From positions 1 to 64,000 of the IMG/VR virus record IMGVR_UViG_3300043395_002359: 64,000 nucleotides of DNA. One strand, given 5' to 3'. The notes under the pieces are model-generated. The model had not been told where the DNA came from, did no database searches, and worked only from the letters and a program-made list of their open reading frames with translations. The translations under genes were made by a program, and so were the position numbers. The stretch's first letter is position 1, and each line of letters starts with the position of its first letter. Below, one piece after another: positions 1 through 5,825 of this stretch. This DNA is from a virus.

Positions 1-49
1 GCGGGCCGTTCACGATCTCGCGGCCCGCACCACGCATAGGAGCCCTCCA

Positions 50-283
50 ATGTCCATCACCGCCAAGTCCACCAAGTCCGAAATCTGGGACGCCTACCAG
101 GCCCTGCTCAAGCAGTCCCAGGCCGAAGTCGTCACCCCGGTGGCGATCCGCAACACCGCTCAAGCTGTCGCGCATGAGACTCTTGAGCTGGCAAGGGATC
201 TCCAGCGCCTGGGCGCCTGGGGCCGCTACCAGATCACCGAGTTGATCAAGATTTACAACAGGCCGGTGCTGAAAGCCGACTGA
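50..283 (+). CDS. Cassette gene, hypothetical (77 aa), inverted relative to its neighbours; paralog of 4122-4364
   Basis: AGGAG RBS; TGA stop overlaps the repeat arm (TGATCGTGA); alignable by eye to 4122-4364. Confidence 0.85.
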   Translation: MSITAKSTKSEIWDAYQALLKQSQAEVVTPVAIRNTAQAVAHETLELARDLQRLGAWGRYQITELIKIYNRPVLKAD

Positions 284-315
284 TCGTGATCAACTGACCT
301 GCGGGCCGTTCACGA

Positions 316-591
316 TCATTCGTAATCATGCGGCCGGTTGCGCTCCCATTCCATTGCTTCACACCGGGCCGTGTGCCAGGCATCCCTGAGGTCGCTGGCG
401 AGGCTCACCAGATCAGCCCAGCCCAGCGCTTCAACCGCCTCTTCTACCTCCGGTTCGCCGCAGTCGTCCAGCATGTAGTAAACCCAGGTGGCGTCGATCT
501 CTGACAGATCCTCGGGGATGCTGAACGTCCCCAGGTTGTTCAGGTAATCCCAGGCGAGGTCGTTTTCAGTGATGATTGGCGTGGTGGTCAT
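316..591 (-). CDS. Cassette gene, acidic hypothetical protein (MTTTPIITEND...)
   Basis: TAGGAG RBS, sigma70-like promoter upstream, stop overlaps the repeat arm. Confidence 0.85.
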   Translation of the reverse strand: MTTTPIITENDLAWDYLNNLGTFSIPEDLSEIDATWVYYMLDDCGEPEVEEAVEALGWADLVSLASDLRDAWHTARCEAMEWERNRPHDYE

Positions 592-613
592 TGGAAAACT
601 CCTATTCGAATCG

Positions 614-642
614 AGTGTAGCACGAAGCGAGATCGTGATCAA
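614..642 (-). promoter_or_regulatory. Sigma70-like promoter TTGATC-N17-TACACT with extended TG; the -35 lies inside the repeat
   Basis: Minus strand reads TTGATC acgatctcgcttcgtgc TACACT. Confidence 0.6.
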
Positions 643-675
643 CTGACCGGCGGGCCGTTCACGATCTTGCTCTTA

Positions 676-873
676 TCATACAGCGATCGGGGCGTTACTG
701 GCAATAAACCTCTGGGCCTGATTCTGATCGATCCAGTAATGCCGATCAGTCCCGATCCTAAACGCAACCTCCCAGATCAATAGGGTGGCAATGCGGCGAT
801 CGACCTTGAAGTGATCAGCAACCCAGCTAACGGACTCAGTAAAGCTGGAGCAGGGCAGGCGGTGGGTTGACAT
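676..873 (-). CDS. Cassette gene, hypothetical (MSTHRLPC...)
   Basis: TAGGAG RBS; fills the space between two repeats. Confidence 0.8.
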   Translation of the reverse strand: MSTHRLPCSSFTESVSWVADHFKVDRRIATLLIWEVAFRIGTDRHYWIDQNQAQRFIASNAPIAV

Positions 874-930
874 TGGAATTCTCCTAGTGGGTGACTTGAT
901 CGTGAGCAATGACCGGCGGGCCGTTCACGA

Positions 931-1152
931 TCAATTCCAGGTTGAATCAGCGGCTGCCTGGCTTCTGACGTAGGAGGAAATCCCGAAGAATCTGCCGTCA
1001 GCCTTCATTTCCTTGGCTGCCACAATGGCCTGGTCCATCGTGTCAAACCATTCCGTAACGGGTCGCGTGCCGCTGGCGGTGACGAACCGCTCAACGTAGA
1101 TGCTGTAACGCCGGCCGCGAGAAGCGAGATTGCGGAATTTGTAGGTTGTCAT
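931..1152 (-). CDS. Cassette gene, hypothetical (MTTYKFRNL...)
   Basis: ORF between repeats; stop overlaps arm; TTGCTC-N17-TAAGGT upstream. Confidence 0.8.
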   Translation of the reverse strand: MTTYKFRNLASRGRRYSIYVERFVTASGTRPVTEWFDTMDQAIVAAKEMKADGRFFGISSYVRSQAAADSTWN

Positions 1153-1260
1153 GGGAAATGCCCGATTGAGTGAATTTCCGAAATTTCCGGAATTGCCTGG
1201 TGGCCCTCCCACCTTAGCACCGATCCTGATCGTGAGCAATGACCGGCGGGCCGTTCACGC

Positions 1261-1419
1261 TCATGATTCGTAACCTATCACCTCCTCGGCCCGTTCCCGT
1301 TCGTTCAGGGCCTCAATCCAGGCGATGTCTTCCTGCAGGCGCTCGAGCAATTCCTCGAGCAGTTCCAAGCTGGCGGTCTCTCGCTCGAGCCAGCGATCAA
1401 AGGATTCAGCGACAGTCAT
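1261..1419 (-). CDS. Cassette gene, small acidic coiled-coil protein (MTVAESFDRW...)
   Basis: AAAGGGAG RBS; stop overlaps arm; Glu/Leu-rich. Confidence 0.8.
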   Translation of the reverse strand: MTVAESFDRWLERETASLELLEELLERLQEDIAWIEALNERERAEEVIGYES

Positions 1420-1485
1420 TGGGGTCTCCCTTTGGTTCAATGATAGCATGGTGAGCGTGAGCAATGACCGGCGGGCCGTTCGCGA

Positions 1486-1899
1486 TCACGCTGCAATCCT
1501 AGCAGCTTGCTGCAGGATGTAGTTGTCAGCGTCAAGGCGCATGGCCCACTCGTCTGAGCCTTCCCAGGCCCCGTTCGAAGCGTACCACGTAAAATCCTGC
1601 TGGCTGATGCCCTCGCCTGGCACGAAGGCCCGCAGGAGGGCGTTAAGGCGTGATTTCGTGGTGTTGGTGCGGTAGCCGCAATCGCTCAGGCGGATCCGCA
1701 TCATGTCTGGCTCCACCACGCCGATCAGGTTGCCATGCAGGCGGATCTCGATTTCGCGGTAGTAGCCTGGCGTATGGGCGATGCCGTGGTGGACCTGGGT
1801 GACCTCAGTGTTGCCGCACAGCAGCAGCCGGCCGTCCCTGGCAGCGGCGCCCAGGCCGTCGCGGATGGCTTGAATCATGCGGGCTTCGACGACTCTCAT
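1486..1899 (-). CDS. Cassette gene, cyanophage-type conserved hypothetical protein
   Basis: AAAGGGG RBS; motif LHGNLIG...GYRTNTTKSRLNALL resembles a family I recall from cyanophages; stop overlaps arm. Confidence 0.85.
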   Translation of the reverse strand: MRVVEARMIQAIRDGLGAAARDGRLLLCGNTEVTQVHHGIAHTPGYYREIEIRLHGNLIGVVEPDMMRIRLSDCGYRTNTTKSRLNALLRAFVPGEGISQQDFTWYASNGAWEGSDEWAMRLDADNYILQQAARIAA

Positions 1900-1954
1900 G
1901 GGATTTCCCCTTTGGTGGTTTGATCGTGATCAATGACCGGCGGGCCGTTCGCGA

Positions 1955-2149
1955 TCACGCGCAGTATCCCATTGGCTGGCCAGCTAGCGTGTGGCTCTGA
2001 ACCACGGAATGGCGCATCCACATCCTGACAGTGTTGTATTCGCCAGTGAAACGATCGCCGTCCCAGCGGTTGGCTACGGCGCGAGCCTGGGCACACTTGG
2101 CCAGGTTCAGCTTGGCAAACATGGTCAGTTCCGGGAAGTCGTAGTTCAT
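1955..2149 (-). CDS. Cassette gene, hypothetical (64 aa)
   Basis: AGGGA RBS; stop overlaps arm. Confidence 0.75.
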   Translation of the reverse strand: MNYDFPELTMFAKLNLAKCAQARAVANRWDGDRFTGEYNTVRMWMRHSVVQSHTLAGQPMGYCA

Positions 2150-2312
2150 GGGGGGTCCCTGTAGCGGATTCAGTCTAGGGCTTGGAATTGGTGGATGGGC
2201 GTGGATCGTAGCAATTCTTGATCGTGATCAATGACCGGCGGGCCGTTCGCGATCACGTTCTGGGCTTCCTGCATTGCACCAGGAATACTAGGGAACACGC
2301 ACTCCTGGGTCA

Positions 2313-2582
2313 ATGGCTGAAAAGAAACGCAACACGATGGACTATTACAAGTCTCATCCTGAGGCGTACAAGAAGAAGATGGAGTACGAGGCGCAGAGAA
2401 GAAAGACTGACAGGGAGCGCGAGAGGTATAACCAGCGCCGCCGGTTCAAGCGGGCGCATGGGCTTGAAGGCAAGATGGGCAACCGTGATGTCAGCCACAC
2501 GAAGGACGGGAAACTCGTCCTGGAGAACCGTTCGACCAACAGGGCTCGAAACGGAGAGGGCGGTCGTCGCACACTGAAGTGA
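2313..2582 (+). CDS. Small basic HNH-like protein; paralog of 52140-52439
   Basis: SHPEAYKKK...DVSHT...EN.S.NRARNG shared with 52140-52439. Confidence 0.85.
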   Translation: MAEKKRNTMDYYKSHPEAYKKKMEYEAQRRKTDRERERYNQRRRFKRAHGLEGKMGNRDVSHTKDGKLVLENRSTNRARNGEGGRRTLK

Positions 2583-2667
2583 CCGGTGCCTGCGATTGCC
2601 GCCTCAGTGCCGTTCGCACCTGCCACATTGCATTGTGACCGGATGTAAATTGCAGTAAGTGGGCAAT

Positions 2668-2691
2668 AAAAAAGGCCCCCATGTGGGGGCC
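2668..2691 (-). terminator. Intrinsic terminator for 2713-3060
   Basis: GGCCCCC-ACAT-GGGGGCC stem followed by a T run on the minus strand. Confidence 0.8.
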
Positions 2692-2712
2692 GTTCTCAAC
2701 AGTCTCAGACTC

Positions 2713-3060
2713 TCAATCCTCCCAGTCAATCAGCGTCACCAGGGCAACTTTGATCCTGACGGGATACTTGTCATTGAGCAAGGTGGTATCCCTCATCTTC
2801 AGCCACACGTCATTCATCTCATCCCAGATCATCACGTCGCCCCGGCTGTAGCGCCGCTGGGCGTCGTCCTGTACGGCAAGCGGGCAGGCGCCACCGATCT
2901 CGAGGTCTACAGTGGCGTCTGGGCGGATCACCAGCTCCCAGCCGGCATCGGCGGGGGTCAGGCCGAACCGGCCGAGCGTGTAGGCCAAGTCGCACCACTC
3001 GAGTGTGCAGGCGTTGTACCGAGCCTCGGCAGGGGCGGGGCGGGACTGCAGGTAGGTCAT
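2713..3060 (-). CDS. Hypothetical protein in module A (MTYLQSRPAP...)
   Basis: ORF between a TTGACG/TAGAAT promoter-like pair and a terminator. Confidence 0.8.
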   Translation of the reverse strand: MTYLQSRPAPAEARYNACTLEWCDLAYTLGRFGLTPADAGWELVIRPDATVDLEIGGACPLAVQDDAQRRYSRGDVMIWDEMNDVWLKMRDTTLLNDKYPVRIKVALVTLIDWED

Positions 3061-3330
3061 GGGAATGATCCCGTTGGACTCCCCGATTCTAACCACGGAT
3101 CCCGGCGGATCGTCAACCCTCTGGCACTAATTATAAAACAAGGTCTGGCTAAATATAGCTAACTAGGCCGAGAAAGCACCTGCGATCCGACCGAAGGGCC
3201 GTTCGCAAGTTCCGAACGGCTTGATTGATTGCCAGCGGCGGGCGCCCGGTGCCTGCGATAGTCGCCTCAGTGCCGTTCGCAGTTGCCAGATTGCACTGTG
3301 ACTGAGTGTAAAGTTGTGGCAGGTAAGCAT

Positions 3331-3354
3331 AAAAAAAAGGCCCCTTTCGGGGCC
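3331..3354 (-). terminator. Intrinsic terminator for 3382-3624
   Basis: GGCCCC-GAAA-GGGGCC followed by T8 on the minus strand. Confidence 0.85.
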
Positions 3355-3381
3355 CCGGTGTAAGCAGTCTCACCAGTCTCG

Positions 3382-3624
3382 TCACTCCTCCTGTGCGTGG
3401 GCGTTGGTCATTAGGTAGTCGTGCAGGCTGAACAGCCAGCGCGTCGCGTCGCTGTAGAACTCGAACGCCTCGTCTGTCATGCCGTCGTCGCTGCTGATCT
3501 GGCTGCGGGCCAGGTCTGTGAGCTGAGAGACGGCGTACAGCATGCCGAGCCGGAAGGCGGTGCCGTCGCCGGCACACTCCTGCTGGCGCTCTGCCTCGAT
3601 GGCGATGGACTTCATTGCGGCCAT
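3382..3624 (-). CDS. Hypothetical protein in module B (MAAMKSIAIE...)
   Basis: Same flanking frame as module A; TTGACG-N18-CATACT upstream. Confidence 0.8.
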   Translation of the reverse strand: MAAMKSIAIEAERQQECAGDGTAFRLGMLYAVSQLTDLARSQISSDDGMTDEAFEFYSDATRWLFSLHDYLMTNAHAQEE

Positions 3625-3779
3625 GGGATTAACCCGATTGGACTCCCACAGTATGGGCACGGCCGTGCCTGCCCGTCAACCCTCAGACGCTAATTGATAA
3701 TTAGCATCCGGCTAAATATACCTAACAACCCCGAGATGGCACTTGCGATTCGACCGAAGGGCCGTTCGCAAGTTCCGCT

Positions 3780-4091
3780 TCATTCGCGCTGGTAGCCCAG
3801 TTGGTCAAGCCGGCGCTCAAGGCGCTGGCAGTCCTCTTCGCTGCTGCACTGGGCCTCGAGCTGGTACCACTCCATTCCAGGGAAGGGGACGAGGTTCGCG
3901 GATACAACGGCCACCGGCCCGGATGCCCCAGGATGGTGGATCAGGACTGACTGGGCCTTGCCTTGCAGGCCGTAGAAGATGCAGGCCAAGCCGATGCCGA
4001 GGCCGATGGTGCCGCCGAGGAGGTTGTCTTGCACTGGAAGGGTCCTTTGGTGGTGGTGGTGCGGCTGTACCGCATGGAATGATCTTAGCAT
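3780..4091 (-). CDS. Cassette gene, putative membrane protein (true start may be an internal GTG)
   Basis: Hydrophobic LLGGTIGLGIGLACIFYGL; fills the inter-repeat interval. Confidence 0.7.
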   Translation of the reverse strand: MLRSFHAVQPHHHHQRTLPVQDNLLGGTIGLGIGLACIFYGLQGKAQSVLIHHPGASGPVAVVSANLVPFPGMEWYQLEAQCSSEEDCQRLERRLDQLGYQRE

Positions 4092-4121
4092 GGAACCTGC
4101 GATTCGACCGACGGGCCGTTC

Positions 4122-4364
4122 TCAGGTGCCTTGGCTTTTGAAGATTGGCCTCCTGTATGTATCAATCACCAGTGTACAGCATGACCGCAGCCAGCGGCCA
4201 GCCTGCTGACAATCCTTCACAAAGAGCGGCAGTTCGCGTGAGACGGTCGAGACTGTACGCTGCATCAGGGTCGGTACGTCGCTCCAGGTGACAGGGGGCC
4301 GAGCCTCGGCGGCCTCCAGGCGGGCGATCAGTTCGGCCTTGGTCAAGCGGGAGTGTGCAGTCAT
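4122..4364 (-). CDS. Cassette gene, paralog of 50-283
   Basis: TKAEL...RTV..V.RE...DCQQAGRW.R...IDTYRRPIFK matches 50-283; C-terminal GT-stop is encoded by the repeat arm. Confidence 0.85.
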   Translation of the reverse strand: MTAHSRLTKAELIARLEAAEARPPVTWSDVPTLMQRTVSTVSRELPLFVKDCQQAGRWLRSCCTLVIDTYRRPIFKSQGT

Positions 4365-4437
4365 GGAAGTGTCCGATGGTGGTTTGTGTAACGAACTTGG
4401 CTGAGAAGGGTACCTGCGACTGACCGACGGGCCGTTC

Positions 4438-4611
4438 TCAGGTGCCAGGCTGCACGGCCCTGGCGACCCGGCACCCCATGACATCGCAGTACACGGTGGC
4501 GGTACCGGGCTTGGCCGCCTTCCGCGGCCCGCCGAACGGAACGAGGATCACGGCCGTTGCCATCGCGCCGAGCAGCAGGCCGGCAGCAACAGAGGAGAGA
4601 GGAGCCTTCAT
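4438..4611 (-). CDS. Cassette gene, small membrane or secreted protein (MKAPLSSVAAGLLLG...)
   Basis: N-terminal hydrophobic stretch; C-terminal GT-stop is encoded by the repeat arm. Confidence 0.75.
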   Translation of the reverse strand: MKAPLSSVAAGLLLGAMATAVILVPFGGPRKAAKPGTATVYCDVMGCRVARAVQPGT

Positions 4612-4650
4612 GGTTGGATGGATGAGAATGGGATTGTCCCTTTCGGTGTC

Positions 4651-4679
4651 AGTGTAGGGCCGATGGTCATGCATGTCAA
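4651..4679 (-). promoter_or_regulatory. Near-consensus sigma70 promoter TTGACA-N17-TACACT pointing into the array
   Basis: Minus strand reads TTGACA tgcatgaccatcggccc TACACT. Confidence 0.8.
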
Positions 4680-4713
4680 GGTACGTGCGACTGACCGACG
4701 GGCCGTTCTCAGG

Positions 4714-4854
4714 TGCCTGCTGCCTGCCTGCCCTGCCTGCCTGCCCTGCCTGCTGCCTGCCCTGCCTCGATGCATCACGCACAAGCAGCGAGGCGATGGC
4801 ATTGCGTTGGCTCTGCCCCTGCCTGCTGCCTTGCCTGCTGCCTGCTGCCTGCTG
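4714..4854. repeat. Low-complexity TGCC/TGC tandem repeats, two tracts
   Basis: tgcctgctgcctgcctgccctgcc... at 4714-4768 and about 4814-4854. Confidence 0.9.
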
Positions 4855-5008
4855 TCATGTGGTGCCTCTCTTGATGCCGGTGCTCGCCGGGGGGTTTGCC
4901 GCCTGGGCGCCAGGAGGCCTGGGTACCCCCACCCCCGATTCCTGGAAAGCCAATCCGAGACAACCCCCTCAGGAAATTTTTCAAAAAAACTGGTACCCTA
5001 GAACAAAA

Positions 5009-5211: not shown

Positions 5212-5262
5212 GTATATTAATGGATGTCTACAGAATGGAAGTATATTAATGGATGTCTACAG
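5212..5262. repeat. 22-bp direct repeat x2, 29-bp period
   Basis: GTATATTAATGGATGTCTACAG at 5212 and 5241. Confidence 0.9.
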
Positions 5263-5277
5263 TAGATTTGGGGACAG

Positions 5278-5796
5278 ATGGCAAAGCGCAGCCCATTAGA
5301 CATTTTAGTAAATTCCAGTATATTAATACAGGAACCGAATGCAACGGCGCTATTAAATGGCAGGTATATTGAGGATGGCGAGGGTCCAAGATATTTAGTA
5401 AAGGCATATTTACAAAGAAGTGAAGGGGATGGAACGGATGACGGGGAGCTTCCTAGTTTTGGCAATAGGGCATCAAGTGGTGGCGGATCTACCAGTACAT
5501 GGTTATTCAGGGGATATGGGATAGAATATACGGAAGTACCGAGTACATTCAACCATGGAGATAACGAGGATGGGTATACGTATCAATCAATATTGACTTC
5601 CAGTGATGCGCCAGCGATTAAGATACCGATATATCCAAATTTAAAAGTCAGTCTTAGGCATGGCACATTACCGATTATACATAAATCGGAGGTAGTAATG
5701 ATTGGCGGTAAATATCAAGGTCTAGGACCTGACAAGACGATATATGTAGAACTGAGGGGGATACCAATTGTCCTCAGGGGATCAATGGTACGTTAA
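5278..5796 (+). CDS. Hypothetical virion protein (possibly head-tail joining)
   Basis: 172-aa ORF at the head of the tail module; position only. Confidence 0.6.
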   Translation: MAKRSPLDILVNSSILIQEPNATALLNGRYIEDGEGPRYLVKAYLQRSEGDGTDDGELPSFGNRASSGGGSTSTWLFRGYGIEYTEVPSTFNHGDNEDGYTYQSILTSSDAPAIKIPIYPNLKVSLRHGTLPIIHKSEVVMIGGKYQGLGPDKTIYVELRGIPIVLRGSMVR

Positions 5797-5825
5797 TCAC
5801 CCTCAGGGGATCAATGGTACGTTAA
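5772..5825. repeat. 25-bp direct repeat x2, 29-bp period
   Basis: CCTCAGGGGATCAATGGTACGTTAA at 5772 and 5801. Confidence 0.9.

Follow-up and report, generated by a model that had tools for sequence, protein, structure and literature searches.

Near the start of the window analysed here, a 64,000-nt stretch that represents the first 64 kb of the 93,040-bp viral record IMGVR_UViG_3300043395_002359 in IMG/VR (G000, estimated complete), two neighbouring minus-strand modules, A (2583-3213) and B (3246-3776), hold two unrelated open reading frames (ORFs), ORF A and ORF B, inside one and the same ordered set of intergenic sequences, referred to below as the frame. In the simplest account, what is repeated is not a gene but an intergenic regulatory element, which would explain why the similarity goes no further than the start and stop codons. 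It is probable that this element, which resembles the promoter-early stem-loop (PeSL) cassettes of T4-type phages and the signals that accompany morons, organises each ORF as a single-gene unit.

One intergenic frame around two unrelated genes

The two modules were compared by MAFFT alignment of positions 2583-3245 with 3246-3800. An earlier note, made from the letters of the DNA alone, had listed a series of landmarks shared by the modules in a fixed order, and every one of them was recovered from both: the variant repeat, TGCCAnATTGCAnTGTGAC, an A-run with a GGCCCC hairpin, CAGTCTCA, CATGGGA..TTGGACTCCC, CGTCAACCCTC, CTAATT, GGCTAAATATAnCTAAC and the main repeat (Table 1). In global alignments evaluated against shuffles, the terminator-side flanks (130 nt; 2583-2712 vs 3246-3381) are identical at 103 of 136 positions (76%, z 16) and the promoter-side flanks (153 nt; 3061-3213 vs 3625-3776) at 117 of 156 (75%, z 18), whereas the best local DNA alignment of the ORF interiors scores under the shuffle mean. 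The similarity extends 115 nt and about 92 nt past the repeats and reaches the ORF ends; in agreement with the note, it ends at the ATG (3058-3060; 3622-3624), as read from the sequence, and on the 3' side it stops short of the stop codons (2713-2715; 3382-3384) by 5 and 9 nt. The frame element is present once in complete form (3061-3381) and twice as halves (3625-3776; 2583-2712).

Conservation within the frame is patchy. The main repeats of the two modules are identical at 36 of 38 positions (95%), the variant repeats at 34 of 38 (89%; 94% over 36 nt to 2583-2618), the dyad blocks at 17 of 19 (89%) and the leader box GGGAGTCCAA at all ten, and the stretches that separate these conserved elements are 53-82% identical. 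The two frames share an unbroken identical run of 27 nt within the hairpin and another, of 19 nt, within the variant repeat. Since the flanks are only about 75% alike, the frame pair is, judged by this divergence, not a recent copy.

The enclosed ORFs are both coding and belong to real gene families, because their GC content at third codon positions (GC3; 0.83 in ORF A and 0.90 in ORF B) is far above that at second positions (GC2; 0.42-0.44) and because both have conserved homologues. ORF A has six relatives (P0003-P0008, 62-90% identity), an exhaustive phmmer search gave three for ORF B (P0009-P0011, 46-69%), and conservation among the members of either family amounts to 42-90%. Almost all of these relatives lie on contigs of about 600-1130 bp, as if assemblies break at cassette-flanking repeats; one relative, P0014, is located on a 58.6-kb contig. 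Neither protein could be assigned to a family in Pfam or PHROG. No match came from tblastn searches of cultured phages with the two ORFs, from profile-seeded IMG/VR scans with both families or from a JGI metagenome scan with ORF A, and searches with Atlas and Foldseek returned no usable fold match for either protein. ORF B is uncovered in the contigs of an RNA library (X7), which is not evidence of absence.

The earlier note had seen no similarity between the two proteins and had named distant homology as the finding that would turn the pair into a simple duplication with divergence. Such homology was looked for with profiles and was not found: hhalign comparison of the two family alignments gave a probability of 0.3%, and BLASTP of ORF A against ORF B produced no alignment at E<=100. 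The predicted secondary-structure classes also differ, ORF B being predicted as three helices (pLDDT, the predicted local distance difference test score, of 70) and ORF A as mixed alpha/beta by an AlphaFold model whose low confidence (pLDDT 36) makes it weak evidence. The claim that the ORFs are unrelated therefore holds at the level of DNA, of BLASTP, of profiles and of predicted structure class.

The note had also likened each module to a moron, that is, to a promoter, a gene and a terminator, and this description stands, with predicted signals placed around each ORF in the same order. Upstream of each ORF there would be an array hairpin repeat, an AT-rich stretch and a sigma-70-like (host-type) promoter, P2, with a stem-loop in its spacer, these signals ending in a conserved leader of the form GGGAGTCCAA .. 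GGGA .. ATG; a second promoter with a -10 element only, P1, is possible right after the hairpin. Downstream of each ORF, a strong intrinsic terminator would come first, then a dyad block and last a degenerate hairpin repeat, so that the putative element runs from terminator, dyad block and degenerate hairpin through a spacer to hairpin, promoter and leader. The elements of A and B are in equal register up to the -35 box and differ in spacer length (19 vs 18 nt); both P2 spacers hold a 5-bp stem-loop, unlike in sequence. The stretches 3117-3149 and 3680-3712 are the AT-richest of the 60% GC region, and two of only three A/T runs of at least six nucleotides in the 5-kb GC-rich region are the U tracts of the two predicted terminators. 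The variant repeats keep their arms and fold no better than shuffles because the inner hairpin has been lost. On the 5' side of terminator A, 12 nt (plus strand GGGCCGTTCTCA; 2668-2699) are shared without mismatch with the core of the type-2b repeats found at 4113, 4429 and 4700, and terminator A may have been derived or remodelled from a hairpin repeat. A search of Rfam gave one sub-threshold match only, to the terminator hairpin.

Table 1. Features of modules A and B, positions counted in the window
Feature	Position	Strand	Remarks
A main-type hairpin repeat	3176-3213	-	8-bp outer stem, inner GGCC/GGUC stem, tetraloop; -19.5 kcal/mol, z -2.7
A conserved box GTTAGnTATATTTAGCC	3150-3166	-	-10-like TATATT at 3152-3157; candidate upstream promoter P1
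A AT-rich stretch 5' of the -35 box	3117-3149	-	includes TATAAT and AATTAG; read from the alignment
A promoter P2 (predicted)	3086-3116	-	-35 TTGACG 3111-3116, 19-nt spacer, -10 TAGAAT 3086-3091
A spacer stem-loop GATCC/GGATC	3098-3111	-	-7.1 kcal/mol
A leader	3061-3085	-	GGGAGTCCAA at 3074-3083; Shine-Dalgarno (SD)-like GGGA 3069-3072, 8 nt before ATG
ORF A (P0002)	2713-3060	-	115 aa + stop; orphan family; ATG at 3060, TGA 2715-2713
A intrinsic terminator (predicted)	2668-2691	-	7 G-C pairs, tetraloop, U6; -17.2 kcal/mol
A conserved dyad block	2621-2639	-	plus strand TGCCACATTGCATTGTGAC; 17/19
A variant (degenerate) hairpin repeat	2583-2620	-	arms TGCGA/TCGCA retained, inner hairpin gone
Spacer, B variant repeat to A main repeat	3214-3245	.	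32 nt, unconserved; 3 positions differ in another sample (X5, loose end at 3233)
B main-type hairpin repeat	3739-3776	-	-21.3 kcal/mol, z -3.9
B conserved box	3713-3729	-	-10-like TATATT at 3715-3720; candidate P1, GTGCCA-16-TATATT called promoter-like
B AT-rich stretch	3680-3712	-	read from the alignment
B promoter P2 (predicted)	3650-3679	-	-35 TTGACG 3674-3679, 18-nt spacer, -10 CATACT 3650-3655
B spacer palindrome GGCACGGCCGTGCC	3656-3669	-	14 nt, perfect; -7.9 kcal/mol
B leader	3625-3649	-	GGGAGTCCAA at 3638-3647; mirrored in the P0009 read-through
ORF B (P0001)	3382-3624	-	80 aa + stop; orphan family
B intrinsic terminator (predicted)	3329-3356	-	8-pair stem, GAAA loop, U8; -16.0 kcal/mol
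B conserved dyad block	3284-3302	-	from the alignment
B variant (degenerate) hairpin repeat	3246-3283	-	from the alignment and a fold test

Traces of the frame are seen beside the relatives of both ORFs. In P0003 and P0006-8 (ORF A family, 62% identity) the gene caller read through the N-terminal side, and the resulting extension mirrors the in-frame upstream translation of the window; the read-through of P0009 (ORF B family, 63% identity) likewise mirrors it, with PIL.ES.R..PM kept. In the ORF A family the read-through keeps ..VVDD (GTTGACGAT, at the -35 box; ..VVD = GTTGAC), the next five codons vary, and they are followed by VVTM at the -10 position and then by G.S.GI.PM. From these strings, which are protein and not DNA, each ORF family seems to keep its own frame in other lineages, with the boxes conserved and the spacer free, and since the boxes are kept and the spacer is variable, this is the pattern expected of working promoters.

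Functional reading and rival explanations

On the grounds of consensus signals and comparative conservation, we infer promoter and terminator activity for the frame, through which the element would insulate each accessory gene and give it its own expression. Through the same element, unrelated ORFs would be flanked by 130-150 nt of homologous sequence on each side. When related phages co-infect a cell, general recombination could then relocate, remove or exchange entire genes and leave them intact. A role of the frame in such gene shuffling is inferred because of the analogy with the T4-type PeSL cassettes and because joints have been found at the neighbouring plain hairpin repeats. The precise ORF replacement that the earlier note had proposed is not borne out as an event: a repeated intergenic element describes the data more simply, and no recombinant between the frames was found.

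The joints come from contigs of four other runs, which were compared with the array of small ORFs and hairpin repeats that surrounds the modules. In the freshwater sample X5 one cassette (897-1226) is precisely deleted (joint 896->1227, 33 shared nt), joints lie at repeats in X4 (1263->2232 and 1273->281), and X7 contains contigs that look circular and have the length of exactly one cassette (909->644, with 23 shared nt only, and 2217->1920). The 23-nt joint is too short for an artefact of a k=31 graph, and tandem or circular forms of the cassettes may exist. Contigs of other samples end at the frame repeats; neither a joint at the A/B frames nor an A/B recombinant was seen in the contigs of the four runs, which is not evidence of absence.

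Several observations weigh against the regulatory-cassette reading. Only two copies of the frame are present in the 93-kb record, and exact-pattern scans of IMG/VR and of JGI metagenome contigs revealed no further one. The enrichment of promoter-like sites in the region is only mild (6 vs 2.2 +/- 1.6 expected from shuffles). With spacers of 18-19 nt and unlike -10 hexamers (TAGAAT, CATACT), P2 may be a weak promoter, or transcription may in reality start from P1. About 90 nt conserved past the terminators have no role within the proposed model, and flanks that have diverged by 25% are poor substrates for homologous recombination except in the 27-nt and 19-nt runs.

As to individual parts of the frame, the exact pattern of the variant repeat has 0 matches in IMG/VR, and megablast of the region against phages gave no match to the frame. 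The TATATTTAGCC box gave 25 matches in IMG/VR, all of which were chance matches according to BLAST of the full flanks, and the type-2 repeat pattern gave four in JGI metagenomes, chance matches inside unrelated genes. The frame is also missing from the two related phages that have the array (G001 and G002).

The hypothesis of a tandem duplication of one gene, the coding regions having then diverged past recognition, is close to refuted. Adjacent modules of like orientation, with an unchanged order of flanking elements, are what such a duplication would leave; however, the flanks remain 75% identical and the coding DNA has no local similarity above shuffles, the products differ in length (115 vs 80 aa) and in predicted structure (mixed strand/helix vs three helices), their profile comparison is null, and both families are conserved at 42-90% internally, so that neither is unusually fast-evolving. 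With flanks still 75% alike, divergence of one duplicated gene is therefore not credible. Co-regulation alone, in which paralogous flanks are held alike by selection for a shared regulator or timing, and one old illegitimate event swapped the cargo with no continuing role in exchange, appears rather unlikely. In its favour, the most conserved parts are discrete boxes, such as contacts with protein or RNA polymerase would preserve, the flanks are old (25% diverged) with no A/B recombinant seen, and the frame stays with each ORF family across lineages, as judged from protein read-through. Such a history leaves the origin of two unrelated ORFs in one frame unexplained, and cassettes have been gained, lost and rearranged at the repeats next door as well as between G000, G001 and G002.

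It has also been considered that the modules are hairpin-bounded mobile cassettes, moved whole by a structure-specific recombinase of the integron or HUH kind, the flanks being the common "vector" part. A repeat-derived element stands at both ends of each module, the two pointing the same way, the hairpin core is invariant and asymmetric with type-specific arms that are still complementary, repeats in other samples are the sites of a precisely deleted cassette and of joints of circle-like or tandem form, and homologues of both ORFs are found on contigs of about 600-1100 bp, as expected with flanking repeats. This explanation is nevertheless improbable: the 93-kb record has no match to Phage_integrase (PF00589) or to Y1 transposase (PF01797), the repeats are without the attC R'/R'' consensus, no joint was seen at the repeats of the frame itself, whose variant repeats are devoid of an inner hairpin, and recombination at hairpins does not explain similarity that continues 115 nt and about 92 nt past the repeats. 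A bolder proposal, in which the frame would be the "expression socket" of a phage-borne cassette platform, integron-like and without an integron integrase, is held to be very improbable; it would have some phage or host enzyme recognise the hairpins and load and unload ORFs, and some cassettes, A and B among them, would bring their own promoter and terminator and so be expressed at any landing site.

Relation to known systems

The closest known counterparts of the frame are the PeSL cassettes of T4-type myoviruses (Arbiol et al. 2010, PMC2839356; Comeau et al. 2014, PMC4122927). These consist of a sigma-70-like promoter with an AT-rich upstream stretch and a stem-loop mostly located between -35 and -10 (PMC2839356; PMC4122927), the stem-loop in the -35/-10 spacer being the commonest layout (PMC2839356). 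They extend from the stop codon of an orphan gene to the SD sequence of the next gene, are concentrated in hyperplastic regions, and mediate indels and mini-circles (PMC2839356; PMC4122927). The frame described here is similarly a composite intergenic element that runs from the stop codon of a small orphan gene to the next SD sequence and start; both modules have a sigma-70-like promoter motif (TTGACG-18-CATACT in B, TTGACG-19-TAGAAT in A), which is a consensus match only, and an AT-rich stretch upstream of the -35 box. The PeSL stem-loop, placed between -35 and -10 or upstream, has its likeness in the 5-bp spacer stem-loops and the upstream hairpin repeat, and the frame too occupies a hyperplastic accessory region, directly upstream of orphan genes, with similarity that ends at the ORF borders.

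The differences are also clear. The phage is siphovirus-like and not of the T4 type; the frame, at about 320 nt, is about three times longer than a PeSL cassette (<100 nt), and it adds a canonical terminator, two copies of the array-wide hairpin repeat and a dyad block. The PeSL stem-loop acts as a terminator or attenuator; in the frame, termination would come from the separate canonical terminator, and the small stem-loops would be at most candidate attenuators. Two frame copies in 93 kb (with 14 plain hairpin repeats) compare with about 50 cassettes per genome in phi1/RB49, and in PeSL cassettes the joints lie in the motif, whereas here they lie at the plain hairpin repeats of the array, none having been seen at the frame.

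Morons, which Juhala and colleagues and Hendrix and colleagues reportedly described in 2000 in lambdoid and other phages, provide a second comparison. Each unit fits the definition, with its own predicted promoter and terminator around one accessory gene and a base composition off that of the phage core (~60% vs ~45% GC). Classical morons are inserted singly and are unrelated, as are the signals that each brings with it; in contrast, the two units here share homologous signals and lie inside a repeat-punctuated array. Both modules are absent from G001 and G002, whose arrays differ throughout, and no clean empty insertion site is seen. With the lambdoid phages there is a further likeness, since the boundary or "linker" sequences of their modules, said to have been described by Susskind and Botstein in 1978 and by Clark and colleagues in 2001, are short conserved intergenic sequences that set recombination joints at gene borders; linkers, however, fall short of a complete expression frame and have no association with hairpin repeats.

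The array also recalls integrons, with small, mostly orphan ORFs between imperfect palindromic repeats and with content and order that vary among relatives. The frame is nonetheless not an integron cassette, because no integron-type tyrosine recombinase (PF00589) match is found in the record, because the repeats do not show the attC arrangement R''/L''-L'/R' with GTTRRRY / RYYYAAC ends, because A and B carry their own predicted promoter and terminator, unlike promoterless cassettes read from a common Pc, and because the shared sequence reaches the ORF ends.

The design is thus already known from T4-type PeSL cassettes and morons and is not a new kind of system, and a two-copy frame alone would not surprise a phage genomicist. 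What is new is that a promoter-terminator frame of PeSL-like type is coupled with a cassette array punctuated by hairpin repeats, a combination undescribed in this phage group. The phages that keep orphan accessory genes in standard promoter-terminator frames now also include one from fresh water, a non-T4 siphophage whose host is probably a cyanobacterium. As the frame is built on the hairpin repeat that punctuates the array, the shuffling of regulatory cassettes would be tied to the repeat array at one locus. The frames mark ORF A and ORF B as candidates for independently expressed accessory genes, for which roles in host takeover or anti-defence are worth testing, and they offer defined parts, predicted promoters and predicted terminators, for a host group that has been little sampled.

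The surrounding array and its phage

The array consists of small, mostly minus-strand ORFs parted by at least 14 hairpin repeats, which share an invariant asymmetric core (GAACGGCCC..GGTC) and have arms of two types, GATCGTGA or ACCTGCGA, that differ between types yet remain complementary. Modules A and B lie at the border of its type-2 and type-1 parts. Bases 1-5000 have a GC content of 58-63%, with a sharp jump to about 45% in the rest, and GC3 of the array ORFs is 0.66-0.90. The far contig end (91000-93040 of the record) is GC-rich too, and position 1 lies inside a repeat core; the array therefore probably continues across the contig ends, the assembly having been broken inside a repeat. 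The repeat and the array are also found in two other viral contigs, G001 and G002, with an array content that varies among the three. That the GC jump stems from a chimeric assembly was ruled out by L058/G001, which has the same jump and the same downstream genes, and further by G002, a closed record in which the array is internal.

G-U pairs in the hairpins of the two frames had suggested an RNA-only reading of the hairpins, which was dropped as no strand preference was seen: among 28 copies, the minus strand gives the better fold in 13 and the plus strand in 14, and the hairpins may act as DNA or as RNA.

The phage appears siphovirus-like, with a tape measure protein of 2421 aa, and is probably a freshwater cyanophage, a reading based on a Gp96-family cassette, a weak match to Synechococcus phage S-CRES1 and the labels of the runs in which it occurs, nearly all of them freshwater or aquatic. 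The former cassette (1489-1899, minus strand) belongs to the Kyanoviridae Gp96 family (PF23790, E 2e-17). Another (2313-2579, plus strand) belongs to phrog_6437, and its start is 79% identical in DNA to the gene adjoining the lysozyme of S-CRES1; the only two DNA matches in the phage collection, of 66 nt and to Synechococcus phages S-CRES1 and S-CRES2, fall in this cassette, at 2313-2378.

The type-1 cassettes are without promoters of their own. A sigma-70-like site, TTGACC-17-TAGTAT at 2285-2313 (minus strand), heads the type-1 sub-array and could drive these cassettes as a single hairpin-punctuated operon. A family with the signature STKxEI..RETVxLARD is encoded on the plus strand in the window (50-283) and on the repeat-sense strand in both related arrays (L058 3-212, L058 1418-1747 and L245 140-415, all minus strand); the repeat cores around the gene keep their orientation, which indicates that the cassette was inverted between its arms. 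At the inner edge of the array, right before the GC drop, simple repeats of the CTGCC/CTGCCTGCC type occupy 4713-4852. Beyond it, two exact tandem duplications with an equal period of 29 nt are found at 5212-5262 and 5772-5825, a 22-mer present twice upstream of a 172-aa gene and a 25-mer present twice with the last codons and the stop of that gene, and these could be slip-duplications or an assembly artefact.

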